Part shown: in pieces, positions 10,011 to 63,969 of the stretch
How positions within the stretch are numbered: position 1 is the first letter of the stretch
Layout: each line of letters begins with the position of its first letter
NCBI GenBank assembly: GCA_951406725.2
Contig: OX597839.1
Location: 744,001-808,000 of the forward strand
From: Octopus vulgaris
Lineage: Eukaryota
Length of the DNA stretch: 64,000 bases
Direction of reading: 5' to 3'
Translations under genes and position numbers: made by a program
Notes under the pieces: generated by a model
Told to the model about the DNA's origin: nothing
What the model saw: only the letters and a program-made list of their open reading frames with translations
The model's database searches: none

Positions 10011-10090
10011 TTTAAGATTTAGTTAGTTGGTCTGCTTTTGTAAATATTCTCTCCTTAACTGATTACTCTGTGTTTTTCCTTTTTCCATAG

Positions 10091-26277: not shown

Positions 26278-26821
26278 TATGATATATATGAGTGAAAGAG
26301 AGAGAGACAGAAAGGGAGAGAGAGACAGAAAGAGAGGGAGATGAGAAAAGAGTGATAGAGAGAGAGAAAGAGTGATAGAGAGAGAAAGTTGGGGTGTGAT
26401 GTTGTTGGGGATTGTTATGTGATCTGTTCTGTATCTGTCTCCGTCAGAAAGTGAACTCGGAGCTGATATCTGTGTAAATGTTTTGATGTTTCTTGATTAC
26501 TCTCGGTTTATGGAAACATGTCGTTGGCCAATATGGACGGCATCTTGGGGCAAAATGGAATCTAAGGAGAGAGAGAGAGAGAAAGAGAGGGAGATGGATA
26601 GGTAGATAGAGAGAGAGAGGGAGAAGGAGAGAGAGAAATGAAGAAGTAGACGGCGGTGGTGGTGGTGGTGGCAGAGTTGTCCGTACTAGTCTTTCAGAAT
26701 GAGGCTGTCGTCTGGATTCTTCCAAATCATCGGGAGGGGAAGGCGGAGTTGGCGACCATTGCTCAAATCTGCACCTGTCTGGCTCCTCCCCTTCTGCGCT
26801 CCTTCATAAAGAGAAGGGGAG

Positions 26822-29800
26822 GGAGGTGATGGTTATGGATGTGGCGGTGGTGGGTGGGGTGGTTATGGCAGTGGTGATGGTGGCTATGGTGGTGGATGTG
26901 GTGGTGGCAGTGGCGTTGTTGGCGGTGGCGGTGGTGGCTGTGGTGATGGTGGTGGTGGTGACGGTGGCTATGGTAAAGGTGGCGGTGGTGACGGTGGCTA
27001 TGGTAGTGGTGGAGGTGGGGGCGGTGACTATGGTGGTGGTGGTGGATGTGGTGGTGGCGGTGGCGTTGTTGGTGGTGGCGGTGGTGGCTGTGATGATGGT
27101 GGCGGTGGTGACGGTGACTATGGTGGTGGTGGTGGTGAGGGCGGTGGCTTTGGTGGTGGTGGTGGATGTGGTGGTGGCGGTGGCGTTGTTGGCGGTGGCG
27201 GTGGTGGCTGTGATGATGGTGGCGGTGGTGACGGTGGCTGTGGTGGTGGTGGTGGTGGTGTAGGTGGCTATGGTGGTGGTGGAGGTGGGGGCGGTGACTA
27301 TGGTGGTGTTGGTGGATGTGGTGGCGGCGGTGGCGTTGTTGGCGGTGGCGGTGGTGGCTGTGATGATGGTGGCGGTGGTGACGGTGGCTGTGGTGGTGGT
27401 GGTGGTGGGGGCGGTGGCTATGGTGGTGGTGGTGGATGTGGTGGTGGCGGTGGCGTTGTTGGCGGTGGCGGTGGCGTTGTTGGCGGTGGCGGTGGTGGCT
27501 GTGGAGTTGTTGGCAGTGGCGGTGGTGGCTGTGGTGAAGGTGGCGGTGGTGACGGTGGAGGTGGGGGCGGTGACTATGGTGTGGTGGAGGTGGGGGCGGT
27601 GACTATGGTGTTGGTGGTGGATGTGGTGGTGGCGGTGGCGTTGTTGGTGGTGGCGGTGGTGGCTGTGGTGATGGTGGCGGTGGTGACGGTGACTATGGTG
27701 GTGGTGGTGGTGGGGGCGGTGGCTATGGTGGTGGTGGTGGATGTGGTGGTGGCGGTGGCGTTGTTGGCGGTGGCGGTGGTGGCTGTGATGATGGTGGTGG
27801 TGGTGACGGTGACTATGGTGGTGGTGGTGGTGGGGGCAGTGGCTATGGTGGTGGTGGAGGTGGGGGCGGTGACTATGGTGGTGTTGGTGGATGTGGTGGC
27901 GGCGGTGGCGTTGTTGGCGGTGGCGGTGGTGGCTGTGATGATGGTGGCGGTGGTGACGGTGACTATGGTGGTGGGTGGTGGTGGGGTGGGGGCGGTGGCT
28001 ATGGTGGTGGTGGTGGATGGTGGCGGTGGCGGTGGGCGGTGGCGGTGGTGGCTGTGGATGGTGGTGGTGGTGACGGTGACTATGGTGGTGGTGGTGGTGG
28101 GGGCGGTGGCTATGGTGGTGGTGGAGGTGGAAGCGGTGACTATGGTGGTGTTGGTGGATGTGGTGGCGGCGGTGGCGTTGTTGGCGGTGGCGGTGGTGGC
28201 TGTGGTGATGTTGGCGGTGGTGACGGTGGCTATGGTGGTGGTGGAGGTGGGGGCGGTGGCTATGGTGGTGGTGGTGGATGTGGTGGTGGCGGTGGCGTTG
28301 TTGGTGGTGGCGGTGGTGGCTGTGGTGATGGTGGCGGTGGTGACGGTGGCTATGGTGGTGGTGGAGGTGGGTGCGGTGGCTATGGTGGCGGTGGCGTTGT
28401 TGGTGGTGGCGGTGGTGGCTGTGGTGATGGTGGCGGTGGTGACGGTGACTATGGTGGTGGTGGAGGTGGGTGCGGTGGCTATGGTGGTGGTGGTGGTGGT
28501 GGTGGCGGTGGCGGTGGCGTTGTTGGCGGTGGCGGTGGTGGCTGTGGTGATGGTGGTGGTGGTGACGGTGGCTATGGTAAAGGTGGCGGTGGTGACGGTG
28601 GCTATGGTAGTGGTGGAGGTGGGGGCGGTGACTATGGTGGTGGTGGTGGATGTGGTGGTGGCGGTGGCGTTGTTGGTGGTGGCGGTGGTGGTTGTGATGA
28701 TGGTGGCGGTGGTGACGGTGACTATGGTGGTGGTGGTGGTGGGGGCGGTGGCTTTGGTGGTGGTGGTGGATGTGGTGGTGGCGGTGGCGTTGTTGGCGGT
28801 AGCGGTGGTGGCTGTGATGATGGTGGCGGTGGTGACGGTGGCTATGGTGGTGGTGGAGGTGGGGGCGGTGGCTATGGTGGTGGTGGTGGATGTGGTGGTG
28901 GCGGTGGCGTTGTTGGCGGTGGCGGTGGTGGCTGTGGTGATGGTGGCGATGGTGACGGTGGCTATGGTGGTGGTGGAGGTGGGGCGGTTGCTATGATGGC
29001 GGTGGTGGATGTGGTGGTGGCGGTGGTGTTGTTGGCGGTGGCGGTGGTGGCTGTGGTGATGGTGGTGGTGATGACGGTGGCTATTGTGGTGGTGGAGGTG
29101 GGGGCGGTGGCTATGGTGGTGTTGGTGGATGTGGTGGCGGCGGTGGCGTTGTTGGCGGTGGTGGTGGTGGCTGTGATGATGGTGGCGGTGGTGACGATTA
29201 CTATGGTGGTGGTGGTGGTGGGGGCGGTGACTATGGTGGTGGTGGTGGATGTGGTGGTGGCGGTGGCGTTGTTGGCGGTGGCGGTGGTGGCTGTGATGAT
29301 GGTGGTGGTGGTGACGGTGGCTATGGTGGTGGTGGTGGTGGGGGCGGTGGCTATGGTGGTGGTGGAGGTGGGGGTGGTGACTATGGTGGTGTTGGTGGAT
29401 GTGGTGGCGGCGGTGGCGTTGTTGGCGGTGGCGGCGGTGGCTGTGGTGATGGTGGCGGTGGTGACGGTGGCTATGGTGGTGGTGGAGGTGGGGGCGGTGG
29501 CTATGGTGGTGGTGGTGGATGTGGTGGTGGCGGTGGTGTTGTTGGCGGTGGCGGTGGTGGCTGTGGTGATGGTGGCGGTGATGACGGTGGCTATTGTGGT
29601 GGTGGAGGTGGGGGCGGTGGCTATGGTGGTGTTGGTGGATGTGGTGGCGGCGGTGGCGTTGTTGGCGGTGGCGGTGGTGGCTGTGATGATGGTGGTGGTG
29701 GTGACGGTGGCTATGGTGGTGGTGGAGGTGGGGGCGGTTGCTATGATGGCGGTGGTGGATGTGGTGGTGGCGGTGGTGTTGTTGGCGGTGGCGGTGGTGG

Positions 29801-32800
29801 CTGTGGTGATGGTGGCGGTGATGACGGTGGCTATTGTGGTGGTGGAGGTGGGGGTGGTGGCTATGGTGGTGGTGGTGGATGTGGTGGCGGCGGTGGCGTT
29901 GTTGGCGGTGGTGGTGGTGGCTGTGATGATGGTGGCGGTGGTGACGATTACTATGGTGGGTGGTGGTGGTGGGGGCGGTGACTATGGTGGTGGTGGTGGA
30001 TGTGGTGGTGGCGGTGGCGTTGTTGGCGGTGGTCGTGGTGGCTGTGATGATGGTGGTGGTGGTGACGGTGACTATGGTGGTGGTGGTGGTGGGGGCGGTG
30101 GCTATGGTGGTGGTGGGGGTGGTGAGGTGGTGGTGGTGGTGGATGTGGTGGCGGCGGTGGCGTTGTTGGCGGTGGCGGTGGTGGCTGTGGTGATGGTGGC
30201 GGTGGTGACGGTGGCTATGGTGGTGGTGGAGGTGGGGGCGGTGGCTATGGTGGTGGTGGTGGATGTGGTGGTGGCGGTGGCGTTGTTGGTGGTGGCGGTG
30301 GTGGCTGTGGTGATGGTGGCGGTGGTGACGGTGACTATGGTGGTGGTGGTGGTGGGGGCGGTGGCTATGGTGGTGGTTGTGGATGTGGTGGTGGCGGTGG
30401 CGTTGTTGGCGGTGGCGGTGGTGGCTGTGATGATGGTGGTGGTGGTGACGGTGACTATGGTGGTGGTGGTGGTGGGGGCGGTGGCTATGGTGGTGGTGGT
30501 GGTGGGGGTGGTGACTATGGTGGTGTTGGTGGATGTGGTGGCGGCGGTGGCGTTGTTGGCGGTGGCGGCGGTGGCTGTGGTGATGGTGGCGGTGGTGACG
30601 GTGACTATGGTGGTGGTGGTGGTGGGGGCGGTGGTGGTGGTGGTGGTTGTGGATGTGGTGGTGGCGGTGGCGTTGTTGGTGGTGGCGGTGGTTGCTGTGA
30701 TGATGGTGGCTGTGGTGACGGTGGCTATGGTGGTGTTGGAGGTGGGGGCGGTGGCTATGGTGGTGGTGGTGGATGTGGTGGTGGCGGTAGCGTTGTTGGC
30801 GTTGGCGGTGGTCGCTGTGGTGATGGTGATGGTGGTGACGGTGGCTGTGGTGGTGGTGGAGGTGGGGGCGGTGGCTATGGTGGTGTTGGTGGATGTGGTG
30901 GTGGCGGTGGCGTTGTTGGCGGTGGCGGTGGTGGCTGTGATGATGGTGGCGGTGGTGACGGTGGCTATGGTGGTGGTGGAGGTGGGGGCGGTGGCTATGG
31001 TGGTGGTGGTGGATGTGGGGGTGGCGGTGGCGTTGGTGGTGGTGGTGGCGTTGTTGGTGGTGGCGGTGGTGGCTGTGGTGATGGTGGCGGTGGTGACGGT
31101 GGCTGTGGTGGTGGTGGAGGTGGGGGCGGTGGCTATGGTGGTGGTGGTGGATGTGGTGGTGGCGGTGGCGTTGTTGGCGGTGGCGGTGGTGGTGGTGGTG
31201 GTGGTGGTGGCGGTGGCGTTGTTGGTGGTGGCGGTGGTGGCTGTGGAGATGGTGGCGGTGGTGACGTCCCTGTGGTGGTGGTGGAGGTGGGGGCGGTTGC
31301 TATGGTGGTGGTGTTGGATGTGGTGGTGGCGGTGGTTGGCGGTGGCGGTGGTGGCGGTGGTGTGGTGATGGTGGTGGTGGTGACGGTGGCTATGGTAAAG
31401 GTGGCGGTGGTGACGGTGGCTATGGTGGTGGTGGAGGTGGGGGCGGTGACTATGGTGGTGGTGGTGGATGTGGTGGTGGCGGTGGCGTTGTTGGTGGTGG
31501 CGGTGGTGGCTGTGGTGATGGTGGCGGTGGTGACGGTGGCTGTGGTGGTGGTGGAGGTGGGGGCGGTGACTATGGTGGTGGTGGTGGATGTGGTGGTGGC
31601 GGTGGCGTTGGTGGTGGTGGTGCGGTGGTGGCTGTGGTGATGGTGGCGGTGTTGACGGTGGCTATGGTGGTGGTGGAGGTGGGGGCGGTGGCTATGGTGG
31701 TGGTGGAGGTGGGGGCGGTGACTATGGTGGTGTTGGTGGATGTGGTGGTGGCGGTGGCGTTGTTGGCGGTGGTGGTGGTGGCTGTGATGATGGTGGCGGT
31801 GGTGACGGTGACTATGGTTGTGGTGGTGGTGGGAACGGTGGCTATGGCGGTGGTGGTGGAGGTGGTGTCGGTGGCTATGGTGTTGGTGGTGGTGGGGGCG
31901 GTGACTATGGTGATGGTGGTGGATGTGGTGGTGGCTGTGGTGATGGTGGCTGTGGTGACGGTGGTTATGGTGGTGGTGGAGGTGGGAGCGGTGGCTATGG
32001 TGGTGGTGGAGGTGGGGGCGGTGGCTATGGTGGTGTTGGTGGATGTGGTAACGGTGGCGTTGTTGGCGGTGGCGGTGGTGGCTGTGATGATGGTGGCGGT
32101 GGTGACGGTGGCTATGGTGGTGGTGGAGGTGGGGGCGGTGGCTTTGGTGGTGGTGGTGGATGTGGTGGTGGCGGTGGCGTTGTTGGCGGTGGCGGTGGTG
32201 GCTGTGGTGATGGTGGCGGTGGTGACGGTGGCTATGGTGGTGGTGGAGGTGGGGGCGGTGGCTATGGTGGTGGTGGTGGATGTGGTGGTGGCGGTGGCGT
32301 TGTTGGCGGTGGCGGTGGTGGCTGTGGTGATGGTGGCGGTGATGACGGTGGCTATTGTGGTGGTGGAGGTGGGGGCGGTGGCTATGGTGGTTGTGGTGGA
32401 TGTGGAGGGGGCGGTCGCGTTGTTGGCGGTGGCGGTGGTGGCTGTTGTGATGGTGGCGGTGGTGACGGAGGCTATGGTGGTGGTGGAGGTGGGGGCGGTG
32501 GCTATGGTGTTGGTGGAGGTGGGGGCGGTGGCTATGGTGGTGTTGGTGGATGTGGTGGTGGCGGTGGTGTTGTTGGCGGTGGCGGTGGTGGCTTTGGTGA
32601 TGATGGCGGTGGTGACGGTGGCTATTTTGGTGGTGGAGGTGGGGGCGGTGGCTATGGTGGTGGTGGTGGATGTGGTGGGGGTGGTGCGTTGTTGGCGGTG
32701 GCGTTGGTGGCTGTGGTGATGGTGGCGGTGGTGACGGTGGCTATTGTGGTGGTGGAGGTGGGGGCGGTGTCTATGGTGGTGGTGGTGGATGTGGAGGGGG

Positions 32801-33600
32801 CGGTCGCGTTGTTGGCGGTGGCGGTGGTGGCTGTTGTGATGGTGGCGGTGAAGGTGGGTGGTAGGGTGGTGGTGGAGATGGAGGCGGTGGCTATGGTGGT
32901 GGTGGTGGATGTGGTCGTGGCGGTGGCGGTGGTGGCTGTGGCGATGGTGGCGGTGGTGACGGTGGCTATGGTGGTGGTGGAGGTGGGGGCGGTGGCTATG
33001 GTGGTGGTGGAGGTGGGGGGGGTGGCTATGGTGGTGGTGGTGGTGGTGGTGGTGGCGGTGGCGTTGTTGGCGGTGGCGGTGGTGGCTGTGGTGATGATGG
33101 CGGTGGTGACGGTGGCTATTGTGGTGGTGGAGGTGGGGGCGGTGGCTATGGTGGTGGTGTTGGATGTGGTGGTGGCGTAGGCGTTGTTGGCGGTGGCGGT
33201 GGTGGCTGTGGTGATGGTGTCGGTGGTGGCTGTGGTGATGGTGTTGGATGTGGTGGGGGCGGTCGCGTTGTTGGCGGTGGCGGTGGTGGCTGTGGTGATG
33301 GTGGCGGTGATGACGGTGGATATGGTGGTGGTGGCTATGGGGGTGGTGATGGATGTGGTGGTTGCGGTGGCGTTCTTGGCGGTGGCGGTGGTGGCTGTGG
33401 TGATGGTTGCGGTGGTGACGGTGGCTATGGTGGTGGTGGTGGTGGATGTGGTGGATGTGATTGGGGCGGTGGCGTTGTCGGCGGTGGCGGTAATGGCTGT
33501 GGTGAGGGTGGCGGAGGTGATGGCGCTGGCTATGGTGGTGTTGAGGGATGTGGTGGTGGCGGTGGCATTGTTGGCGGTGGCGGTTGTGGCTGTGGTGATT
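26822..33600 (+). repeat. GGN-triplet array (120-bp unit, 150-bp variants); possible Gly/Tyr/Cys-rich structural protein exon
   Basis: The unit translates as GDGGYGGGGGGGGGYGGGGGCGGGGGVVGGGGGGCGDGGG. About ten frame breaks, mostly in G runs, and one TAG at 32862. No ATG or signal peptide seen. The repeat is certain; coding status is not. Confidence 0.85.
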
Positions 33601-33602
33601 TT

Positions 33603-34930
33603 ATTCGGTGGTTGCCATTTGGTCTGAAAGTTGCACCTGCAATATTTCAGCAGGTTCTGGATGCGATGTTGGTGGACTGTCAATTTGCAATTCAGGACAA
33701 ATTATAGATAAAAATGGAGGACGACCTGACCCGTCGAAGGCAGACGCAATTAAAAAATAAGCTTCCTCCAACTAACATAGGGACATTACAAGCTTTTCTT
33801 GGCCTACCAAATTACATACCAAACATGTTTGAATTGAGTGCTCCACTTTATAATTTTCTAAAGAAAGACGTCAAATGGAATTTGTCAAATAAGTGTCAAA
33901 TGGCGTTTCAGGATATTTTGTTGCTGGCTCATTTCGATCCTGCAGCGGCGTTTGTTGTAGCTTCTGCCGCTTCTGAATACGGTGTAGGATCAGTTTTTTT
34001 ACGCAAGTATAAAGTCGGTAATATGAAGGTGGTAGTTCTTGCCTCACGTGCTCTGATTGCAGCAGAAAAAAAAACTACAGTCAGAAAGAGAATAAAACTC
34101 TAGCGATCATTTTTGCCGTGAAGAAATTTCGTAGACTTCTCCACGGTAGACGTTTTCGGCTCTAGACGGACCACCGATCCTTACTATCAATTTTCGGATC
34201 GAAGACAGGAATTGCTACTCATACAGCTAACAGATTAATATGTAGGGGTACAATATTGTTAAATTACAACTTTAAGATGGAATACATTCCTTCTAAAAAA
34301 ATTAGCCATGCGGATTGTTTATCTGGGCGAATTCCGGAGAATGCGGAACCGCTAGAAGATATGGTGATAGCCGCATTAAATCAGAATAGGAAGTTAAAAA
34401 CGTTATGCGTAATGTCATTCAGGAGTTGCCAGTGACTGTACAAGATATGAAAAGTAAAACAGCAGAGGGCAAATACGTCTTAAAAATGAAAGAAACCTTG
34501 AAAACTAAACAAAAGGGAAACACGAATGCGAACCATTTTTCATTCTTCGACAATGTATTAATTTACGCACGAAAAGTGGTAGTACCACCCGCACTACAGA
34601 AACAGATATTACAGGAATTTCATAGTGTAAGCCCCTTTCAAAGTATACAAGAATGGTAAAGAAAGTTGGCAGGATGGCAAGACTAAAAGAATGGAAACAT
34701 GGGGTATTTAATAAAAGGTAAACGACACCTAAATCAATTAAAAATCAGACATGCAGAAGAAGTGAAGGAAATTCCAGTGAAGTGTTTTATCATATGTCCA
34801 ATGTGCCAGCATCAAAATAAATTGGGCCTAAAAGGAGCAGAAACAGAAAGCGTAAACAGACTCAACATTCATAAATAATTCCCAAGCGAAAAGGCACTGA
34901 ACTTAGGGAAGCAAAATTTCAAAGAAGGGA
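33603..34930 (+). mobile_element. Decayed Ty3/Gypsy pol (RT-RNase H-integrase remnants)
   Basis: RWLPFGLKVAPAIFQQVLDAML, GQIIDKNG.RPDPSK, LQAFLGL.NY, LAHFDP...ASEYGVG...ASRAL, AIIFAVKKF...TDHRSL, KVVVPPALQKQILQEFH. The YLDD segment is deleted. Confidence 0.88.
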
Positions 34931-45324: not shown

Positions 45325-45382
45325 TGTATCACTGACGAAGGGAGGGTTCTTTTTGAACTAACCCTGAAATCGTTCCGATATG
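45325..45382 (+). ncRNA. Minimal type-I hammerhead ribozyme motif (canonical core)
   Basis: TATCa-CTGACGA-AGGG.ag.GGTTC-ttttt-GAACT.aa.CCCT-GAAA-TCGT-TC^-cGATA. The inverted arm reads AATCGGTCCGATA (GUC site). Confidence 0.7.
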
Positions 45383-45591
45383 GTAATAATGGAATTTTTT
45401 AGAGATTTCTGTCGACCTAAAAAAATTATATGGTAAATGGACATTATGTCCAATTTTCGGCATATTTGGCATTAGAGATGTTTTCGTTTGCCCTTATTTA
45501 TAAGTTGTTTATAATTTAACCTTTAAAGGTATTTTTTAATATACTGGCCATTGATAAAATGTTTTTCGAAAAAACTTTTTATCCTACATTA

Positions 45592-46849: not shown

Positions 46850-48580
46850 TTCCTCATCACTGAATGTTTGATTCCGTCCCCTTCAAATACCCTTAGGTAT
46901 TGGAGCTCTCCGGCGGTTCTAACTCCTTTATGACATTCTGCTAGTTAAGATTAACATCGGATGTTTCTGTTAATTTTCCCTTGATAAAGGTAGCTTCTGC
47001 ACATTGTTTGGTGCTAGTTTTGAGTATGTTGTTGTCCTTGAAGTATCTAATGCGCTTTTCATACCTTAGCACATCCCTTTTGATTGATAGTTTCTATGGC
47101 GGTATTGATGTCAAGTATAGTTTTAATATTATATGTTTTCTTTAATTTTCGGATTTTTGTTGGTTTGATAGTTTTGTCAAACGTAAGGGTTTCTAAACAT
47201 TCTATGTCAGACCTATTTAGCTGAATCTGGTATTGAATACGCTCTTGCCAAGTAAGCTTTTGTGGGAATGTTGTCGTTTTCTAATCTTTTCACCACATAG
47301 AATCGCTGAGATTTTCTCGGATGCAAAGTACAGGTGGTTGAAATGTGTAATATCAACATCATTAGTTGAAATTATATCCTTAAGTGCAAGGCGGATTTCA
47401 CAAATTACTTTCAGGTTTTGGTTAGAATTGCGAAGTTCATTCGCACTGGTTTCCTTAATTTTCAGCCATTCAATCATGATTTGATATTTTAGATCATGTA
47501 GTTCTGTTGGGTCAATTTCTGTGTGACTTTCTTCGTCTTTTTGATTAAATAAGTACCACTTAAGTACTTGGTGTATCTAACTGAGTGTCCCACACCCCAC
47601 AGCTATCAGATTAAAATGACAATTACCGATAATGCTTGAAGAGCTCTTGAAGAGCTCTTGCTATTACAAGCAATGATGAGTTTTGTAAGTGTTCTCTCTC
47701 TACATTTGTACCAATCTTTTTGAGCCACGTTGGTAGTTGAGTGCTGATATTATAAGCGCACCAATCACTATTGTTATTACGTCCACTTCCTCCATTTTTC
47801 CACAACCTGTGTCCAACCAATGTCAGATTTACGACATTTAACCTGATGATTACACCGCATTATTGCATCCCACAGGAGTTTGCAATCATTCTCAGAAACT
47901 CCTTCTAAGGTTTGGTCATACTACCTCTCTGATGTTTCTTGGCCATAATTTCCACAGAGCTCCCAATGGATCATTCCTGCAACGTTGTTATGTCATCTTT
48001 TGTAACTACGTTGTGCCAATGTCGGGCATCCACTAACAACGTGCTATACTGCTTCACCTCTCACACCACACGGTCTGCATTTGTCGCTCTCAGTTGTGTT
48101 ATCATTTTTGCACTTCACATAGTTTGTCCTTAATACTTGTTCTTGTTTCTGTGTTCAGGTCACACCTCCGCATTCATAACCACCAGCCTTCTCTATCTGC
48201 CTCGTCATGCAAAATAGCAGTACATTATTTCTCTTTCCATACCATTTCGTTTTTTGTGTCCTTTTCCTCTTTGAATTTTTCTTTCTAAGCACAATTATCA
48301 ATTTTGATGATACTGGACTTCTTCACATGTTCTAGCAATGGTTTCATGGCATTTTATTATATACAACCTAATCTGTTTTCTGTTGCTTCGACACAATCAC
48401 GATAACTAATCAAACTTCTCCAATCCTTTCTTCTGGACAAGTATGCAAGTATAACCTATCAGCGTCACTCTTGGATGCAATGCTCCGTGCGTTGCCAACA
48501 GTTTTCGTGTATTCGTATCCATACACATCAATTCTTTCATTTGCCAGACACGTGAGGAATACATTTCTATCTTACACGCA
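46850..48580 (-). mobile_element. Old R4/Dong-type LINE fragments
   Basis: DTNTRKLLATHGALHPR and HLQNSSLLVIARAL are homologous to motifs of the intact-looking copy. Confidence 0.55.
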
Positions 48581-48584
48581 TACT

Positions 48585-51500
48585 TCACAGCAGGGCTCTA
48601 CCCCAAAAAAGAAAACACAACAAAACATACATATAAAATATGGAAGGAAAATAATAGAGATATAGACTTGGATACAGCAATGAACCCTAATAAATTAGCT
48701 AACGTACGAAGATACATTCTCAACACAAAAAAAATATCAGAAATAGAAATAGAACACCTAAAAGAAAACATACACCAGGAAAATGTAGATAGAAGCCACA
48801 CAACAATGCCCAATAATATAAACACTGAAACTGTAAAACACGAAGACAAACGCAACATTCCCAACAAACACGATGTAAACAACGAAGGGGAGCCTAATGA
48901 TTATGATAGTATAAAAAATAAAATAATCAAAGAACTGAAAACCACAGAGCTCAAAATGGACCACCGACCATACCTCCCAAGAATCAAAATAAACGAAATA
49001 ACAACACCTATTATAAACAGCATAAACCTAGCCGTCACTGAACTGATAGCCACTGAATAAAAAAAAAGTGATGTCACTGAGCTAAATAACTTAATATACG
49101 CCGCAGCCACTGCAGCCACAAAAGAAGCTGGATACTCACCCAAACCCGCCCAAACAGGAGTACCACCACCCAAACAAACCCTGTGGATAAATAACATCCA
49201 AAGCAAAATAAAAAAAATTAGAAAAGACCTGCCGATTCTTAATGAAATCAGCAAACAATCAACGCTACTGAGCAACAAAAAGAGAACAAAAATACTCCGC
49301 AAATATAACATCACAGAGAAAGATTTGCCTGAAATAAAAGAAAAGCTGAAGCAAGATATCCTTGCCAAAGCACAAAGGATCCGCCGGTACAAGAAACGCT
49401 AACGCTTCTTTGAAGAAAACAAAAAGTTCAACTTCAACCCCAAAAGTTCTACCAAGAACTGGGCAAAAATAAAATAGAAGTCACTGCAGCACCAACGGCA
49501 GAAGAATTGGAAGAATTCTGGAGAGAAATATGGTCGGCGAACGAACCACCAAAAAAAGGAGTATCAAAATAACAAACTCGGCATCTGAACAACTTTGGAC
49601 CCCCATAACAACTGAAGAGGTCACCCAGGCACTGCAAAGACTAAGCAACTGGAAGGCACCTGGGCATGACAAGATCCCCAACTTCTGGTTGAAATATCTA
49701 ACAGGAATGCACAAAAAACTGGCTGAAAACTTTAACAACGTACTAGCAGAGCCAGAGACAATGCCTGAATGGCTCACGAAGGGGAAAACCATCTTAATTC
49801 CCAAATCAAATGAAACAGAAAAACCAGAAAACTACAGACCAATAACCTGCCTCCCTACTATGTTCAAGGCATTTACTGCAGTGATATCACAAAGGCTGAA
49901 CAAGCACCTGGACGAAAACAAACTGTTCCCAGAAGAGCAGAAAGGATGCCGCAAAGGCTCATATGGCTGTAAAGATCAACTAATGATTAATAAAGCCATA
50001 ACTGAAGACAGCCACAGAAAGAAGAAAGGCCTCAGTATGGCCTGGATTGACTACAAAAAGGCGTTTGATAGCATCCCCCACACATGGATCCTCGAAACAC
50101 TAGCCATTAACAAAGTAGTACCAAACATCATAAAATTCATAGAGCACTCTATGAATAAATGGCAAACAGTCCTACACCTCCAAACAAAAGAGGGACTCAT
50201 GAAAACCAAAGACATCCCCATTAGAAGAGGAATATTCCAGGGAGACACGCTCTCTCCACTCCTTTTCTGCTTGGCACTGTCACCTCTATCTGATATGCTA
50301 AATAGAACTGGATGTGGATAAAGATGTTACGGCAAAACGATCAGCCACCTTTTATATATGGATGACCTAAAACTATACGCTGCAAATGACAAACAGCTGG
50401 AAACACTATTAAAGACAGTTCATGGATTTACCAAAGAAATAGATATGAAATTTGGATTAGAAAAATGCGCCAAAGTAACCCTGAAAAGAGGAAAACTAGT
50501 TAAGAGTAGCAACATCACACTAGATAAAACCAATGAAATAAAAGAATTAGACCAAAGCCAAACTTACAAATACTTAGGAATCCATGAACTAGATAAGACA
50601 CAACACACACAAATGAAAGAGAAAATAAAAAAAGAATATTATAGACGAGTTAGATCAATACTAAACACAGAGCTCAATGCTAAAAACAAGATAATAGGTA
50701 TCAACACTTTAGCTGTCCCAGTTATAAGTTACAGCTACAATATTCTCAACTGGACACTAAATGAACTGGCCAAAATAGATAGGAAAACAAGAAAAATAAT
50801 GACAGGATCTAGGATGCATTACCCAAAATCTGACATAGAAAGACTATATATACAACGTATAGAAGGTGGTAGAGGCCTTATACAGCTGGAAAACTACTAT
50901 AAAATAACCACCATAGGACTGCAAAAATATCTACTTCAGAAGGAAGGAAAACTGATACAAATAGCGGCAAAACACGAACAAAACAAAAAACTGTTCTCAG
51001 TATTTAAGGAAGCTGACAAATACAAACAAGAAATCATACCACCTAATAAATATGAAGAAGAAGAAGAAGAAGAAGAAGAAGATGAAGAAACAACAAAAGC
51101 TATAAGACAAATGAAATCCGAACTAAAAATAGAACAGCAACGAACCATGATAAAACGATGGCAAGAAAAGCCCCTTCACGGTAAATACTGGACTAAACTA
51201 AACGCAAAAGAAATAGACAAAGAAAAATCCAAGCAATGGTTGAGAAGCTCAGGACTCAAAGCAGAGACAGAGGGATTTTTAATTGCAGCACAAGACCAAA
51301 GCCTCCCCACCAGAAATTACCAAAAACATGTAATGAAAAGAAATATAACTAGTAACTGCAGAATATGTGGAGATGGACAAGAAACAATAAATCATATTAT
51401 CTCTGGCTGCCAAGTCCTGGCTAAGAAGGAATATATTCACAGACATGACAGAGTTAGAACCTACATACACTGGAAGCTATGCCAACATTATGGAATAACA

Positions 51501-52027
51501 ACAGAAAAAATATGGTATAGGCACACACCAGAAAAGGTCACAGAAAACGAGAAAGCAACCATACTCTGGGATATGCCGATACACACAGATAGAGAAATTA
51601 AGGCCAACAGACCAGATATAGTTGTCAGGGATCATGAAGAAGAAAAAGGCTTTCTAATTGATGTATCAATACCGGCAGATGACAACGTGTCTCTAAAAGA
51701 AATGGAGAAACTTTCAAAATACAAAGACCTGGAAATAGAGGTAACCAGAATGTGGAATCTAAAAACAGAAACAATTCATATCATAGTAGGTGCATTAAGC
51801 ATGATAAAAAAATATTCAGACAAATACATAACAAAAACACCAGGACTTACAAACACATATAACATACAGAAAATTGCACTACTAGGCACTGCACACATCC
51901 TACGCAGAACATTTTCCATGCAATAACCATCAGAGCATCACAACAAATCACAGCATATACCCAAGGCACACAGAGCTGCGCTCGGTAGGGAAGTGAAAGC
52001 ACGCTATAAAGATAAAACTACTGAAAA
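48585..52027 (+). mobile_element. Near-complete R4/Dong-clade non-LTR retrotransposon (RT, CCHC, REL endonuclease), (AAT)n 3' junction
   Basis: KAPGHD, YRPITCL, WIDYKKAFDS, GIFQGDTLSPLLF, YMDDLKLY, YKYLG, CRICG..ETINHIISGC, RHD, RPD..LIDV..K..KY. A few premature stops (49058, ~49400, 50319) and a frame break near 49550. ORF ends at 51926. Confidence 0.92.
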
Positions 52028-52896: not shown

Positions 52897-53853
52897 TCTA
52901 CACAATATAGAAATATACTGCGCAAAAACACTACTTCTAGATCAAATTATATCATACATGTTGCCATGGTAGTCACACGCCAACGATAACTAAACGACCA
53001 CTATTAGTTAAAAGCAAGATCAATGCATGAAGAAGAAAACAGAAAGAAACAAACAACAAACTTCCAACCTCCGCCTCTTTCACTTTCTCTTTCTGTTAAA
53101 TCGCATCCTCATTCGTAGAAACACAGGTAAGTTGGCATGCAAAGAGAGAGCTATATATTCTGACGCAAATTTGAGACGCATTCATTTCTGTAACTCATTT
53201 AAAGCTCTGTCTTGACGAGAACCAAACTTTCCAGGCAACACAACACATCTCTATATCTACATTTAAGGTAATTTCCTATAATAGCATCATAATAGCTTTT
53301 ATAATTTTTGAGATCATTTTAATATGTGCCTATACATACACACACACACACATTTCAATAACTTATTTTCAGAACGTAGTCCATGGAATCCCTAAAAAGA
53401 TCAGAAAAAGATTTTAAAAAATGAAAGAATTCTAAAAAATTACAATTCCTCAGTGGCTTTTATACCACTTGAATATGTATAAATATATATGTATGCATGC
53501 CTACATACATACATTTATATATATATATATATATATGTATATACATATAAATATACATTTGCATATATATATATATATAGATATACATATATCGCACATA
53601 TATATATACATATGCACCTATATATATATATATATATATACATACACATACACACTCTCACACATATATATACATATATGTGTGTGTAGATCGCTAGCCA
53701 CGAAATATTTTTAATTTTCTCTCCTTGTTTCTTTCCGTGGAAGAGCGTAGGCTCGAAAGGTTAAACACTTCTTCAGTTCCCGAGCGTTAAACTAATACAT
53801 CTGTTTGTTGTCTACAGCACCTGTCTTTATCTTTTGTTTTATTTTGTGAATTC

Positions 53854-53977
<124 letters not shown>

Positions 53978-54213
53978 GGAATTTTGAGATTAATAATCTA
54001 GTGATCTAGTGTTAACTCAATATATGTATGTTCGAGAACAAGTGTTAGATGAATATAGAGCGGCAATAAGTAAAATGGATGTCATAGTAAAAACAAGGGT
54101 TATGCTAAGAACATCAATAGTTTGCAAATGTGTATGCTATGAAATGCAAGGATTTCTTAGCTGTGTGCCTACATAAAAACATAATATCCTATAACTGCAT
54201 CGCAGCCTCGAAA

Positions 54214-54260
<47 letters not shown>

Positions 54261-54395
54261 GAGAGAGAGAGAGAGAGAGAGATAGATAGATAGATATATA
54301 GATAGATGTATATATATACATTATTTACATACATATATATTGATACATTATTTGCATAGATGCATATATATATATATTTATGAGTATATGTATAC

Positions 54396-54456
<61 letters not shown>

Positions 54457-55350
54457 AATGTACATATATACGTGTATATATCTATATTAATAAAATTCTC
54501 TGTGGTTGGGTGCGTGCGTGCTTTCTTTATGCACAGTGAAATCGCTGGATTAGTGTGTACGAAAGTTTTTCATTACCCGGGGAAGATTCTCGGGGAATGA
54601 AATTTTGGCTCTTGCCAATACAGAGGGTTGCACACTCTCCTTCCTATATGAAACTTGGGATTTTTTTCAGCGGTATTATTCTTTCACTTTTGATAACAAT
54701 ATTGTTTCACTTTTATTCTTTCACTTTTGACTTCCGGATTTTTCAGCGATACATTATTGTTTCACTTTTACACAAATTATGGCTTGTACTCATCTTGGGG
54801 GCTGCAGCTTCTCCTATACGATCATTCTGAGTTTTTTTTCAGTAGATTCATATGTTTTCGATGACGGACATTCCGAATATGCAAACCGCCATGTTTTCAA
54901 AATATTTAATTACCTCCCTCACCCTAAATTCTTAGTTTTTTACTTTTTTTCGATTATTTTTGTCAATCTATGTGAAGAAATACGAGATTAAGATTATGGA
55001 AAAATATTTTTTTTTCATTTCAAACTTTCTATGAAGAGATGAATAATTCTGTACGCTACTTATAATATTTACATTGGACGGATATGTGTCCTCATCTTGT
55101 TTCTTTTTTACCACATCGTTTCGGCTGGTTTACTTCCAGCCTTCATCGGCTGTGCTGGGCATATAGCGTAGTGGTTAAGAGCGCGGGATACTATCCCCAA
55201 AATTACGAATTCAATTCCAGAGAGTGTTTTGAATAAATAATAATAATAATAATAATAATGAAAATAATAATAATATTAATAACGTAAATAATAATATTAA
55301 TAAAATAATAATAATGAAAGTAATGAAAATAATAATAATAATAATAATAA

Positions 55351-55384
<34 letters not shown>

Positions 55385-55513
55385 TAATATTTATGTATCT
55401 ATGTATGCATGTATGGATATATACGTCTCTAAGTATGCTTGTATGTATGTATATATATATATATGTGCATATATGTGCGAATGCGAAAAAAGTATACACA
55501 CACACAGACACAA

Positions 55514-55606
<93 letters not shown>

Positions 55607-56248
55607 TGTATGTATATATATTGTCGACAGAATATAGAAATATACTGCGCAAAAACAGTATTTCTAGATCAAATTATATCATACGTGTTGCCATAGTAGT
55701 CACATGCCCACGATAACTAAACGACCGCTACAAGTTAAAAGCCAAATCAATGCATGAAGAAGAAAACAGAAAGAAACAAACAACAAACTTTCCACCTCCG
55801 CCTCTTTCACTTTCTCTTTTTGTTATATCGCATCCTCATTCGTAGAAACACAGGTAAGTTGGTATGCAAAGAGAGAACTATATATTCTGAAGCAAATTTG
55901 AGACGCATTCATTTCTGTAACTAATTTAAAGCTCTGTCTTGACGAGAACCAAACTTTCCAGGCAACACAACACGTCTCTATATCTCAAATTAAGGTAATT
56001 TCCTATAATAGCATCATAATAGCTTTTATAATTTTTGAGATCATTTTAATATGTGCCTATACATACACAAACACACACACACACATTTCAATAACTTATT
56101 TTCAGAACGTAGTCCATGGAATCCCTAAAAAGATCAGAAAAAGATTTTAAAAAATGAAAGAATTCTAAAAAATTACAATTCCTCAGTGGCTTTTATACCT
56201 CTTGAATATGTATAAATATATATATATGCATGCCTACATACATACATT

Positions 56249-56289
<41 letters not shown>

Positions 56290-56605
56290 ACATATAAATA
56301 TACATTTGCATATATATATATATAAAGATATACATATATCGCACATATATATATATATACATATGCACCTATATATATATATATATGTATACATACACAT
56401 ACACACTCTCACACATATATATACATATATGTGTGTGTAGATCGCTAGCCACGAAATATTTTTTATTTTCTCTCCTTGTTTCGTTCTGTGGAAGAGCGTA
56501 GGCTCGAAAGGGTATACACTTCTTCAGTTCCCGAGCGTTAAACTAATACATCTGTTTGTTGTCTACAGCACCTGTCTTTATCTTTTGTTTTATTTTGTGA
56601 ATTCT

Positions 56606-56644
<39 letters not shown>

Positions 56645-56895
56645 TATATATATATAGGAATGGTGAGATTAATAATCTAGTGATCTAGTTTTAACTCAAT
56701 ATATGTATGTTCGAGAACAAAGTGTTAGATGAATATAGAGCGGCAATAAGTAAAATGGATGTCATAGTAAAAACAAGAGTTATGTTATGAACATCAATAG
56801 TTTGCAAATGTGTATGCTATGAAATGCAAGGATTTCTTAGCTGTGTGCCTACATAACAACATAATATCCTATAACTGCATAGCAGCCTCGAAAAG

Positions 56896-56951
<56 letters not shown>

Positions 56952-56961
56952 AGAGAGATAA

Positions 56962-57015
<54 letters not shown>

Positions 57016-57099
57016 GTATGTATATATATACATTATTTACATACATATATATTGATACATTATTTGCATAGATGCATATATATATATATATATTTATGA

Positions 57100-57139
<40 letters not shown>

Positions 57140-58048
57140 GTATGTATGTGTGTATATATGAATGTACATATATACGTATATATATATATACGTGTATATA
57201 TCTATATCAATAAAATTCTCTGTGGGTGGGTGCGTGCGTACTTTCTTTATGCACAGTGAAATCGCTGGATTAGTGTGTACGAAAGTTTTTCATTACTCGG
57301 GGAAGATTCTCGGGGAATGAAATTTTGGCTCTTGCCAATACAGAGGGCTGCACACTCTCCTTCCTATATGATCCTTGTGAATTTTTTCAGCGATATTATT
57401 CTTTCACTTTTGATAACAATATTGTTTCACTTTTATTCTTTCACTTTTGACTTCCGGGTTTTTCAGCGATACATTATTGTTTCACTTTTACACAAATTAT
57501 GGCTTGTACTCATATTGGGGGCTGCAGCTTCTCCTATACGATCATTCTGAGTTTTTTTTTCAGTAGATTCTTATGTTTTCGATGACGGACATTCCGAATA
57601 TGCAAACCGCCATGTTTTCAAAATTTTTAATTACCTCCCTCACCCTAAATTCTTAGTTTTTTACTTTTTTTCGATTATTTTTGTCAATCTATGTGAAGAA
57701 ATACGAGATTAAGATTATGGAAAAATATTTTCTTTTCATTTCAAACTTTCTATGAAGAGATGAATAATTCTGTACGTTACTTATAATATTTACATTGGAC
57801 GGATATGTGTCCTCATCTTGTTTGTTTTTTACCACATCGTATCGGCTGGTTTACTTCCAGCCTTCATGGGCTGTGCTGGGCATATAGCGTAGTGGTTAAG
57901 AGCGCGGGATACTATCCCCAAAATTACGAATTCAATTCCAGAGAGTGTTTTGAATAAATAATAATAATAATAATAATAATGAAAATAATAATAATATTAA
58001 TAACGTAAATGATAATATTAATAAAATAATAATAATGAAAGTAATGAA

Positions 58049-58108
<60 letters not shown>

Positions 58109-58239
58109 TAATATTTATGTATCTATGTATGCATGTATGGATATTTACGTCTCTAAGTATGCTTGTATGTATGTATATATATATATATATATGTGCATAT
58201 ATGTGCGAATGCGTAAAAAGTATACACACACACAGACAC

Positions 58240-58332
<93 letters not shown>

Positions 58333-58522
58333 TGCTGTATTCAACAACACAACACATCACATGCTCTTAATCCCTTTGGATCTTAACACCTCAAGGTAAC
58401 TTTTTGGGAAGAGCATAGGCTCGAAAGGTTAAACACTTTCTCAGTTCCCGAGCGTTAAACTAATACATCTGTTTGTTGTCTACAGCACCTGTCTTTATCT
58501 TTCGTTTTATATTGTGAATTCT

Positions 58523-58611
<89 letters not shown>

Positions 58612-58753
58612 AATTGTGAGATTAATAATCTAGTGATCTAGTGTTAACTCAATATATGTATGTTCGAGATCAAAGTGTTAGATGAATATAGAGCGGCAAT
58701 AAGCAAAATGGATGTCATAGGAAAAACAAGGGTTATGTTACGAACACACGCAG

Positions 58754-58795
<42 letters not shown>

Positions 58796-59484
58796 GTATG
58801 TATATATATATATATATATGATCGACAGAATATAGAAATATACTGCGCAAAAACACTACTTCTATATCAAATTATATCATACGTGTTGCCATAGTAGTGA
58901 CACGCCCACGATAACTAAACGACCGCTACAAGTTAAAAGCAAAATCAATGCATGAAGAAGAAAACAGTAAGAAACAAACAACAAACTTTCAACCTCCGCC
59001 TCTTTCACTTTCTCTTTTTGTTATATCGCATCCTCATTCGTAGAAACACAGGTAAGTTGGCATGCAAAGAGAGAGCTATATATTCTGAAGCAAATTTGAG
59101 ACGCATTCATTTCTGTAACTGATTTAAAGCTCTGTCTTGACGAGAACCAAACTTTCCAGGCAACACAACACGTCTCTATATCTACAATTAAGGTAATTTC
59201 CTATAATAGCATCATAATTGCTTTTATAATTTTTGAGATCATTTTAATATGGGCCTATACACACACACACACACACACACATTTCAATAACGTAATTTCA
59301 GAACGTAGTCCAAGGAATCCCTAAAAAGATCAGAAAAAGTTTTTAAAAACGAAAGAATTCTAAAAAATTGCAATTCCTCAGTGACTTTTAGGCCCTCCTG
59401 AATATGTATAAATATATATATATGCATGCCTACATACATACATTGATATATATATATATATACATATAAATATACATTTGCATA

Positions 59485-59544
<60 letters not shown>

Positions 59545-60216
59545 TACATATATCGCACATATATATTGATATGCACATATATATATATATATATATATAT
59601 GTATACATACACATACACACTCGCACAAATATATATACATATATGTGTGTGTAGATTGCTAGCCACGAAATAGTTTTTATTTTCTCTCCTTGTTTCTTTC
59701 CGTGGTAGAGCGTAGGCTCGAAAGGTTAAACACTTCTTCAGTTCCCGAGCGTTAAAGTAATACATCTGTTTGTTATCTACAGCACCTCTCTTTATCTTTT
59801 GTTTTATTTTGTGAATTCTCCCTGTATATATATATATATAGGAATTGTGAGATTAATAATCTAGTGATCTAGTGTTAACTCAATATATGTATGTTCGAGA
59901 ACAAAGTGTTAGATGAATATAGAGCGGCAATATGTAAAATGGATGTGATAGTAAAAACAAGGGTTATGCTACGAACATCAATAGTTTGCAAATGTGTATG
60001 CTATGAAATGCAAGGATTTCTTAGCTGTGTGCCTACATAACAACATAATATCCTATAACTGCATCGCAGCCTCGAAAAATGTTATATATATATCAAGAGA
60101 GAGAGACCGAGATAGATAGATAGATGTATTTATGTATATATATACATTATTTACATACATATATATTGATACATTATTTGCATAGCTGCATATATATATA
60201 TATATATATTAATGAG

Positions 60217-60275
<59 letters not shown>

Positions 60276-61157
60276 ATATATGAATGTACATATATACGTA
60301 TATATATATACGTGTATATATCTATATCAATAAAATTCTCTGTGGGTGGGTGCGTGCGTGCTTTCTTTATGCACAGTGAAATCGCTGGATTAGTGTGTAC
60401 GAAAGTTTTTCATTACTCGGGGAAGATTCCCGGGGAATGAAATTTCGGCTCTTGCCAATACAGAGGGTTGAACACTCTCCTTCGTATATGAAACTTGTGA
60501 ATTTTTTTCAACGGTATTATTCTTTCACTTTTGATAACAATATTGTTTCACTTTTATTCTTTCACTTTTGACTTCCGGGTTTTTTCAGCGATACATTATT
60601 GTTTCACTTTTACACAAATTATGGCCTGTACTCATATTTGGGGCTGCAGCTTCTCCTATACGATTATTCTGAGTTTTTTTTTCAGTGGATTCATATGTTT
60701 TCGATGACGGACATTCCGAATATGCAAAACGCCATGTTTTCAAAATTTTTAATTACCTCACTCACCCTAAATTTTTTAATATTTTACTTTTTTTTCGATT
60801 ATTTCTCTCAATCTATGTGAATAAATACGAGATTAAGATTATGGAAAAATATTTTTTTTTATTTCAAATTTTCTATGAAGAGATGAATAATTGTTTACGT
60901 TACTTCTATTATTTACATTGGACGGATATGTGTCCTCATCTTGTTTGTCTTTTACCACAACATTTTGGCTGGTTTACTTCCAGCCTTCATCGGCTGTGCT
61001 GGGCATATAGCGTAGAGGTTAAGAGCGCGGGATACTATCCCCAAAATTACGAATTCAATTCCAGAGAGTGTTTTGAATAAATAATAATAATAATAATGAA
61101 AATAATAATAATAATAATAATGAAAATAATGATAATAATAATAATAATATTAATGAA

Positions 61158-61226
<69 letters not shown>

Positions 61227-61357
61227 TAATATGTATGTATCTATGTATGCATGTATGGATATTTACGTCTCTAATTATGCTTGTATGTATGTATATATAT
61301 ATGTGCATATATGTGCGAATGCGTAAAAAGTATACACACACACAGGCACACACGCAG

Positions 61358-61393
<36 letters not shown>

Positions 61394-62041
61394 GTATGTA
61401 TATATATATATGATCGACAGAATATAGAAATATACTGCGCAAAAACACTACTTCTACATCAAATTATATCATACGTGTTGCCATAGTAGTGACACGCCCA
61501 CGATAACTAAACGACCACTATTAGTTAAAAGCAAAATCAATGCATGAAGAAGAAAACAGTAAGAAACAAACAACAAACTTTCAAACTCCGCCTCTTTCAC
61601 TTTCTCCTTCTGTTATATCGCATCCTCATTCGTAGAAACACAGGTAAGTTGGCATGCAAAGAGAGAGAGAGCTATATATTGTGAAGCAAATTTGAGAGGC
61701 ATTCATTTCTGTAACTGATTTAAAGCTCTGTCTTGACGAGAACCAAACTTTCCAGGCAACACAACACGCCTCTATATTTACAATTAAGGTAATTTCCTAT
61801 AATAGCATCATAATAGCTTTTATAATTTTTGAGATCATTTTAATATGTGCCTATACACACACACACACACACACACACACATTTCAATAACGTATTTTCA
61901 GAACGTAGTCCAAGGAATCCCTAAAAAGATCAGAAAAAGTTTTTAAAAACGAAAGAATTTTAAAAAATTGCAATTCCTCAGTGACTTTTAGGCCCTCCTG
62001 AATATGTATAAATATATATATATACATGCCTACATACATAC

Positions 62042-62085
<44 letters not shown>

Positions 62086-62094
62086 ATATACATT

Positions 62095-62130
<36 letters not shown>

Positions 62131-62135
<5 letters not shown>

Positions 62136-62767
62136 GAAATATTAAAATAACTAAGTCTCTCTAAAAGAGAACAGCGGCAGCGTTCCCGGAAAATAATAGT
62201 TATCGCCATACTAATATGGCATTCTTATAAAAACTGTATCCATATACCTCGAGAAAAAACTACTTGCTGTCCGCTTATTAGCTTTCCATGAGGCCATCGC
62301 CTTAAGTTTCAACAATAGAAATATTAAAATAACTATTTGATACACAAACTGTATCCATATAACCTTCGAACAAGGGAGGTCAGTCGCTCCACACTACTTG
62401 ACCGGCAGCTACAGACGCGTTTCGGAGTATTGCCCCTTTTCAATGCAGCGTAGCCATATTAGTTTGGCGATAACTATTATTTTCCTGGAACGATGACGCT
62501 GTTCTCTTTTAGAGAGACTTAGTTATTTTAATATTTCTATTATTGAAAACAAGTGGATGTATTCCACCGAAACTAGGAATACTCCGAAACGCGTATGTAG
62601 CTGCCGGTCAAGTAGTGTGGAGCGACTAACCTCCCTTGTTCGAAGGTTATATGGATACAGTTTGTGTATCAAATAGCTAACTTAAGGCGATGGCCTCATG
62701 GAGCTAATAAGCGGACAGATTTTTTCTTATTTTTATTAGAATGCCATATTAGTATGGCGATTACTAT

Positions 62768-62771
<4 letters not shown>
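62131..62771. mobile_element. Patchwork fold-back Penelope-like element inserted in (TA)n of tandem unit 4
   Basis: Four pairs of inverted segments. Absent from the equivalent (TA)n in units 1-3. Confidence 0.75.
62408..62449 (-). ncRNA. Minimal type-I hammerhead ribozyme motif with U3-A8 core
   Basis: The - strand reads GCTGCA-TTGAAAA-GGGG-caata-CTCC-GAAA-CGCG-TC^-TGTAGC. Confidence 0.7.
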
Positions 62772-62815
<44 letters not shown>

Positions 62816-63517
62816 CGCACATATATATTGATATGCACATATATATATATTTATGTATACATACACATACACACTCGCACACATATATATACATATATGT
62901 GTGTGTAGATTGCTAGCCAAGAAATAGTTTTTATTTTCTCTCCTTGTTTCTTTCCGTGGTAGAGCGTAGGCTCGAAAGGTTAAACACTTTTTCAGTTCCC
63001 GAGCGTTAAAGTAATATATCTGTTTGTTATCTACAGCACCTGTCTTTATCTTTTGTTTTATTTTGTGAATGCTCCCTATATATATATATATATATAGGAA
63101 TTGTGAGATTAATAATCTAGTGATCTAGTGTTAACTCAATATATGTATGTTCGAGAACAAAGTGTTAGATGAATATAGAGCGGCAATAAGTAAAATGGAT
63201 GTCATAGTAAAAACAAGGGTTATGCTTCGAACATCAATAGTTTGCAAATGTGTATGCTATGAAATGCAAGGATTTCTTAGCTGTGTGCCTACATAACAAC
63301 ATTATATCCTATAACTGCATCGCAGCCTCGAAAAATATTATATATATATATATATACATATATATAAAGAGGGAGAGAGAGAGAGAGAGAGAGAGATAGA
63401 TAGATATATAGTTAGATAGATAGATGTATATATATATACATTATTTACATACATATATATTGATACATTATTTGCATAGATGCATATATATATATATATT
63501 TATGAGTATATGTATAC

Positions 63518-63553
<36 letters not shown>

Positions 63554-63571
63554 ATATGAATGTACATATAT

Positions 63572-63969
63572 AGGCGCAGGAGTGGCTGTGTGGTAAGTAG
63601 CTTGCTATCCAACCACATGGTTCCAGGTTCAGTCTCACTGCGTGGCATCTTGGGCAAGTGTCTTCTGCTTTAGCCCCGGGCCGACCAATGCCTTGTGAGT
63701 GGATTTGCTAGATGGAAACTGAAAGCAGCCCGTCGTATATATGTATATGTGTTTGTGTGTCTGTGTTTGTCCCTGTAGCATTGCTTGACAACCGATGCTG
63801 GTGTGTTTACGTCCCCGTCACTTAGCGGTTCGGCGAAAGAGACCGATAGAATAAGTACTGGGCTTACAAAGAATAAGTCCCGGGGTCGATTTGCTCGACT
63901 AAAGGCGGTGCTCCAGCATGGCCGCAGTCAAGTGACTGAAACAAGTAAAAGAGTAAAGAGTAAAAGAGT
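63572..63969 (+). mobile_element. SINE family 1 full-length copy
   Basis: Complete head to tail. It interrupts AATGTACATATATA|CGT, which is intact in the other tandem units. Confidence 0.9.

Follow-up and report, generated by a model that had tools for sequence, protein, structure and literature searches.

A U3-A8 type I hammerhead motif in a high-copy, retrozyme-like repeat unit of Octopus vulgaris

A hammerhead motif on the minus strand of the Octopus vulgaris genome, here called HHR1, is best explained as the type I hammerhead of a high-copy, non-LTR retrozyme-like unit of about 362 nt that was probably copied in trans by a Penelope-like element (PLE). We consider this explanation likely, and hold it somewhat more likely than not that hammerheads of the HHR1 family cleave. 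HHR1 lies at 62405-62455 of the 64,000-nucleotide stretch analyzed here (the window).

The minus strand from 62449 to 62408 has exactly the letters from which a hammerhead had previously been proposed in a sequence-only reading of this DNA. Stem I is formed by GCUGCA and UGUAGC, 6 bp including one G-U pair, and in the folding it extends past an internal loop 1, made up of UAC in the 5' strand and U in the 3' strand, to three further pairs, GGC/GCC, at the distal end. The catalytic core U3-U4-G5-A6-A7-A8-A9 occupies 62437-62443, with U3 at 62443 and A8 at 62438. Stem II, GGGG/CUCC with the loop CAAUA, lies at 62424-62436, and the family majority has C at 62426. G12-A13-A14, a self-complementary hexamer from 15.1 to 16.1 that would serve as stem III of a dimer, and C17 are found at 62413-62423. 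An A15.1-U16.1 pair closes CGCG, C17 is at 62414, and the cut is predicted between 62414 and 62413. The earlier description of all stems as intact was overstated, as one pair within stem II is G-U and stem III of the monomer is a single base pair.

HHR1 agrees with the type I core consensus (U4 G5 A6 N7 A9, G12 A13 A14, A15.1-U16.1, H17; PMC7151607), with the Watson-Crick pair between positions 3 and 8 present as U3-A8 and the usual C3-G8 letters absent. It also has the canonical animal form, with a helix I of 6 bp, a helix II of 4 bp, and a short palindromic helix III. Passages of PMC4209133 give this canonical type I architecture as helix I of 6 bp, helix II of 4 bp, and helix III of 1-2 bp with a palindromic loop, working in dimers. 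The minimal hammerhead of PLEs is marked by an extra base between A9 and 10.1, a long helix II, and a short helix I; HHR1 is without the extra base, and its helix II has 4 bp. The residues expected for a tertiary contact are present (U62407, C62450, and loop 2 from C62432 to A62428), the contact itself being a prediction by comparison with Schistosoma, where an excerpt of PMC2632901 names three residues for it: in internal loop 1 the first U and the last C, and in loop 2 the last A. The sequence-only reading was thus right about the type I class, the U3-A8 core, and a palindrome in stem III as in hammerheads that cleave as dimers, while its term "minimal" does not suit a canonical animal architecture with tertiary-contact residues, and it did not name the retrozyme-like insertion as the setting. 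U3-A8 cores are natural and active in vitro according to part of PMC3088659, and PMC4209133 describes U3-A8 covariation, with about 1,300 matches, among Schistosoma PLE-related motifs.

HHR1 is the only match in the window to a strict descriptor (stem I of at least 6 bp and stem II of at least 4 bp, with either core). When the window is shuffled block by block with dinucleotides preserved, the same descriptor finds matches in 3 of 500 shuffles, and in 0 of 60 in a smaller set. A match to a relaxed descriptor at 45328-45384 on the plus strand, with a CUGACGA core, was rejected; its stem I has only 4 bp, and 40 of 500 shuffles give such a match. The fold of the HHR1 42-mer is no more stable than those of shuffles (z -0.82), and its MFE structure differs from the catalytic fold. 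The Rfam hammerhead models do not match HHR1 even at E <= 10, either in the insertion described below or in 71 bases around the motif, and this miss is probably the cost that U3 and A8 incur in the models. For the whole window, no hammerhead is found among the 150 of 342 Rfam matches listed, which include microsatellite matches to miRNA models.

The family to which HHR1 belongs can be seen in contigs from 4 of 24 listed sequencing runs, aligned to 62198-62602. These four runs come from three studies, and one may be the source of the window; X1, X3, and X9 are large and bear three organism labels, and X2 is small and only guessed to be RNA. None of the 24 runs is recorded as RNA, which speaks neither for nor against expression. 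The aligned contigs number 2,796 (X1), 1,267 (X3), 863 (X9), and 4 (X2), which is not a copy number, and summed depths are 10^5 to 10^6 versus tens for single listed contigs. The octopus unit is a high-copy repeat. Within the limits of aligned contigs, which drop rare variants, and of a listing threshold of 1%, no other letter reaches 1% at positions 3 or 8 (62443 and 62438) in X1, X3, and X9. From 62406 to 62485, the only position with a listed difference is 62426, and differences are listed on both sides of the motif, at 62384-62405 and 62486-62507. The change at 62426 is A>G on the plus strand, accounting for 639,610 of 702,976 depth in X1, 579,452 of 629,129 in X3, and 102,551 of 106,253 in X9. 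This majority letter (91-97% of depth) turns the G-U pair into G-C, giving a stem II of four G-C pairs. It had been proposed that U3 and A8 could be private decay if other genomic copies mostly have CTGAAGA, and in the public contigs neither C3 nor G8 appears at 1% or more. Among the aligned contigs U3-A8 is the family norm and not private decay. Summed depth in X1 is about 1.03 million at 62408-62421 and 266,000 at 62436-62449, with a drop of about half in X3 and X9. A change of copy in the reference at 62456 accounts for part of this lower depth over the 5' half of HHR1, and a diverged subfamily with a different 5' half could be hidden from the contigs.

The length of the unit comes from a single X2 contig (record 9; 392 nt, depth 8.5), whose first and last 30 letters map to the same place. 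Its letters 1-102 map to 62554-62453, 126-292 to 62266-62456, and 340-392 to 62577-62525, and the segment on 62266-62456 matches HHR1 with no other letters. From 31-letter words we infer that this contig is cyclic with a unit of about 362 nt; its source may be tandem DNA or circular RNA. The joint between opposite strands from 62456 to 62577 also occurs in one X1 contig. Read in the ribozyme sense, the unit consists of HHR1, a body, an AT-rich end, a second hammerhead-like motif (HHR2), a 47-nt linker, and then HHR1 again. The cyclic contig, together with a copy in the window that wraps around the unit end, implies tandem or circular templates, and no head-to-tail array with two full HHR1 copies occurs in the window or in the aligned contigs. 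The unit is non-coding, with a longest stop-free frame of 60 codons in either copy, and has a GC content of 37-39%. In these respects it resembles non-LTR retrozymes: non-coding, within 150-450 bp, with a type I hammerhead, in many copies, and with GC below 50%. No RT or GIY-YIG ORF is present in the insertion and no PLE ORF is linked to it in the window, where 8 chosen ORF fragments gave no GIY-YIG match. Family-specific patterns found no match in metagenome contigs or prokaryote genomes. A loose U3-A8 pattern without a stem constraint, which hits at least 120 stretches in viral contigs, was discarded as uninformative.

HHR2 (62543-62577, plus strand) is hammerhead-like, with a U3-A8 core, and has the look of a degenerate minimal hammerhead as found in PLEs. 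After its UUGAAAA core come one extra base, a helix of 5 bp, GAAA, and CUAG, and loose ends of contigs show that the family continues past it with UA, completing a GUA triplet, and then an A-rich strand. Its flanks, U-rich and AU-rich, agree with the minimal consensus for PLEs given in part of the PMC4209133 supplement. HHR2 has the features of PLE minimal hammerheads in part only; A opposes C at 10.1/11.1, where helix II begins, and an additional A precedes U3. We regard it as a relic of doubtful function, and this is the least certain part of the analysis. Immediately ahead of HHR2, many copies of the family run out into (TA)n; 33 records of X1 and 14 of X9 have (TA)n as the loose end following 62543, and (TA)n at this point is a common end of the family.

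HHR1 sits within a 640-bp segment, 62132-62770, that occurs once in the window. The window contains four tandem units of roughly 2.6-3.2 kb at about 52900-63600, and only the fourth has the insertion. The flanks of the segment match the other three units at 90-97%, with a gap of 161-197 bp of microsatellite there versus 851 bp here, and all 3 of these paralogous sites are without the segment. We conclude that the 640-bp segment was inserted into a (TA)n tract, of which the left part is at 62094-62131 and the right part at 62771-62800. In a (TA)n target of this kind, a target-site duplication would be hard to tell apart from the tract. The insertion holds two copies of the unit that meet head to head with a 4-nt overlap (62453-62456). 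The left copy (62132-62456, minus strand) runs from just 5' of HHR1 to (TA)n at the family's common end, with local insertions, and only here is HHR1 complete. The right, inverted copy (62453-62770, plus strand) starts in the AT-rich end and reads through HHR2; a deletion has taken out the linker together with the 5' half of HHR1, after which the copy passes the unit end a second time and ends in (TA)n. Both copies have the minority letter in stem II, which suggests one template or subfamily for the two. A partial tandem with an inverted 5'-truncated copy in a microsatellite target follows the PLE pattern; part of Craig et al. 2021 (PMC8557442) names all of these features as hallmarks of such elements.

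Several other features lie in the window. A RING-finger exon is found at 10059-10499 on the plus strand, of which 10092-10289 is 97% identical to an Octopus sinensis MIB2-like sequence and 76% to O. bimaculoides, two matches that mark the window as Octopus DNA. From 26800 to 33600 (plus strand) runs a 6.8-kb coding-like repeat rich in Gly, Cys, Tyr, and Asp (GGGGC and GGGDGGY units) with several frame shifts, which may represent a structural protein or assembly errors, and directly after it an RNase H-like LTR retrotransposon fragment (33708-34103, plus strand). A broken non-LTR retrotransposon with RVT_1 and zf-RVT matches occupies 48455-51926 (plus strand), and by eye 23597-24400 is a related C-terminal piece. 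A 184-bp tandem array, which may be SINE-like, is present in opposite orientations at 21276-22754 (8 copies) and 15342-15710 (2 copies) and shares sequence with dispersed repeats.

The ACGCGU hexamer of HHR1 (15.1-16.1) is self-complementary, and when two 42-mers are cofolded the MFE structure is a dimeric hammerhead. We did not accept the energy gain of the dimer as evidence, since 127 of 200 shuffles equal it. The folding also predicts a competing strand at 62401-62389 (minus strand) that pairs with 62453-62440, thereby taking up the 5' side of stem I and some of the core. For a minus-strand transcript ending at 62395 the predicted probability of stem I is 0.97, and at 62385 it is 0.00, a collapse caused by this capture. 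Folding thus supports a time window for HHR1 during transcription. A construct of 62390-62470, which had been suggested for in vitro work, is predicted to take up the competing structure without stem I, so that failure of this construct to cleave would carry little weight.

The inverted arms 62324-62431 and 62578-62685 are 108 nt long and 95% complementary, and the second, on the plus strand, contains the 3' half of HHR1. The inverted partial copy reported earlier at 62582-62601 is indeed present here, but it lacks the core as well as the 5' side of both stem I and stem II, and the GUA triplet that had been read in it as a valid cleavage site is a private change of the right copy. We rejected this partial copy as a dimer partner, as it is on the opposite strand and has no core, and instead view it as a likely antisense mask. 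In the folding, minus-strand transcripts starting at 62620 or beyond have a stem I probability of 0.00 in 14 of the 15 cases modeled, the other giving 0.12, and for such read-through it is 0.00 while the transcript end is at or above 62324. Because stem I is predicted at close to zero in read-through, and no partner is available on the same strand, the genomic copy at 62408-62449 is probably masked by its own inverted duplicate and silent as a ribozyme; we think it unlikely to be active in place. These arms and a second pair, 62130-62220 and 62453-62543, could form dsRNA upon read-through, a possible substrate for A-to-I editing or small RNAs.

In the mechanism we propose, HHR1 would fold while a transcript through tandem units is still being synthesized. 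As stem III has a single base pair, two copies would pair through their self-complementary hexamers and cut after GUC, freeing unit-length RNA that may ligate into a circle, and the downstream strand would then lock HHR1 off. The reverse transcriptase and endonuclease of a PLE would copy this RNA into (TA)n tracts, yielding more-than-unit and inverted copies. The use of dimers, the RNA circles, and the PLE helper are steps that we infer. Sections of a preprint by Li et al. 2026 (bioRxiv 10.64898/2026.07.22.740005) argue that animal retrozymes are non-autonomous PLE derivatives, and an excerpt of PMC13282606 credits O. vulgaris with 31 recently active PLE families. Counting against the model, the same sections of that preprint report no cleavage for 8 of the 9 retrozyme dimers predicted in Xenopus, and an Anolis PLE inserted in vitro without needing its hammerhead, according to part of PMC11167929.

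The inverted structure and the (TA)n target would also suit a pseudo-LTR (pLTR) of an autonomous PLE, in which case the insertion would be a pair of severely 5'-truncated copies, the 362-nt cycle would be tandem pLTRs, and the hammerhead would trim transcripts. Cercyon PLEs, in the portion of PMC4209133 that treats them, have dual hammerheads on opposite strands 100-700 bp apart with U3-A8 cores; HHR2 resembles the PLE minimal consensus, and family copies pile up at one end. Against such an origin, HHR1 is canonical, with a 4-bp helix II and no extra base after A9, neither copy has a frame above 60 codons, the single unit-spanning contig closes on itself with no space for an ORF, and none of the loose ends listed was identified as leading into an ORF, with 176 more beyond that list. 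We therefore judge a pLTR improbable. It is also conceivable that the ribozyme is dead, having come from a hammerhead-bearing ancestor with a U3-A8 core that spread by founder effect in an element that moves without cleavage. A young family can be uniform without selection, many hammerheads of animal PLEs show little activity or none, the competing helix is strong, and HHR2 appears decayed. However, the two changes jointly keep the 3-8 pair, the tertiary residues are intact, the motif of about 50 nt is without a listed variant except at 62426 while its flanks vary under three organism labels, and the in vitro activity of U3-A8 (PMC3088659, in part) points the same way, so that a dead ribozyme seems to us unlikely.

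Two sets of long inverted arms and a TA target would be expected of a DNA transposon of the fold-back or MITE-like kind, in which 62130-62220 and 62453-62543 would be terminal inverted repeats of 91 bp and the hammerhead-like motif a passenger. The arms, however, belong to two copies of one unit, the cyclic unit-spanning contig has the arm segment once, and the right copy wraps past the unit end, all of which makes a DNA transposon very unlikely. A chance match, or private decay of a C3-G8 copy, would explain why Rfam finds nothing and why the fold is no better than shuffles, but with strict matches in only 3 of 500 shuffles and no C3 or G8 listed at 1% or above, its probability is close to negligible. 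The retrozyme-like unit copied by a PLE remains the explanation we prefer.

Retrozymes, U3-A8 cores, and opposite-strand hammerhead pairs are already in print. We found no cephalopod retrozyme in the literature that we covered, which includes repeat papers on O. vulgaris and coleoids, and an octopus family could be named outside it; a giant squid paper counted 235 Rfam hammerhead-1 matches and did not analyze them. If HHR1 is active, retrozymes would extend to cephalopods, and surveys based on Rfam or on C3-G8 cores would be missing whole high-copy families. The family offers a natural test of how U3-A8 performs with tertiary contacts, and the PLE-type inverted insertion with its empty paralogous sites offers a test case for Penelope machinery in animal retrozymes. 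In its fullest form, which we put forward tentatively and think less probable than not by some distance, the octopus has an abundant family of circular-RNA retrozymes whose tertiary-stabilized canonical hammerhead, with a working U3-A8 core, is missed by Rfam and CUGANGA descriptors, and the relic minimal PLE hammerhead at the insertion end records an origin from, or capture by, a Penelope pLTR.

HHR1 resembles Sm-alpha of Schistosoma mansoni, as described in part of PMC2632901, in that internal loop 1 has U as its first and C as its last residue and loop 2 starts with C and ends with A, and differs in having shorter loops (loop 2 is CAAUA versus CAAAUA in Sm-alpha) and U3-A8 in place of C3-G8. 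The Schistosoma Cercyon PLE hammerheads, as presented in passages of PMC4209133, share U3-A8, with one listed example having a UUGAAAA core, and are likewise paired on opposite strands 100-700 bp apart. These are minimal motifs, with a long helix II, an extra base after A9, and a poorly defined loop 1, whereas HHR1 is canonical with tertiary loops; they also sit in the pLTRs of ORF-bearing elements, while no ORF is linked to HHR1 in the window. PLE insertions, as far as the excerpt of PMC8557442 describes them, share with the octopus insertion the partial tandem with an inverted 5'-truncated copy, the microsatellite target, and, as far as a (TA)n tract lets one tell, the lack of a target duplication. 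Unlike autonomous PLEs, the insertion has no RT or GIY-YIG coding sequence within it, and a homologous autonomous PLE was not identified.

Ribozyme-carrying repeats of this type are known from mussels, corals, and salamanders. Metazoan retrozymes, from what part of PMC7229834 (Cervera and de la Pena 2020) reports, differ from the octopus unit in their head-to-tail arrays as opposed to an inverted insertion; the octopus unit, which is known from sequence only, is also set apart by U3-A8 as the family norm and by a second, degenerate hammerhead-like motif inside the unit. The two are alike in being non-coding, of similar size, below 50% GC, present in many copies, and equipped with a canonical type I hammerhead, and the non-LTR retrozymes of Mytilus, at 350-390 bp, bracket the octopus unit of about 362 nt. 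In the axolotl HHR_Amex1 of the same source, stem III is likewise a single base pair, closed by a tetraloop that is palindromic, and this motif cleaves poorly alone, at 6% in 1 h, and well as a dimer.
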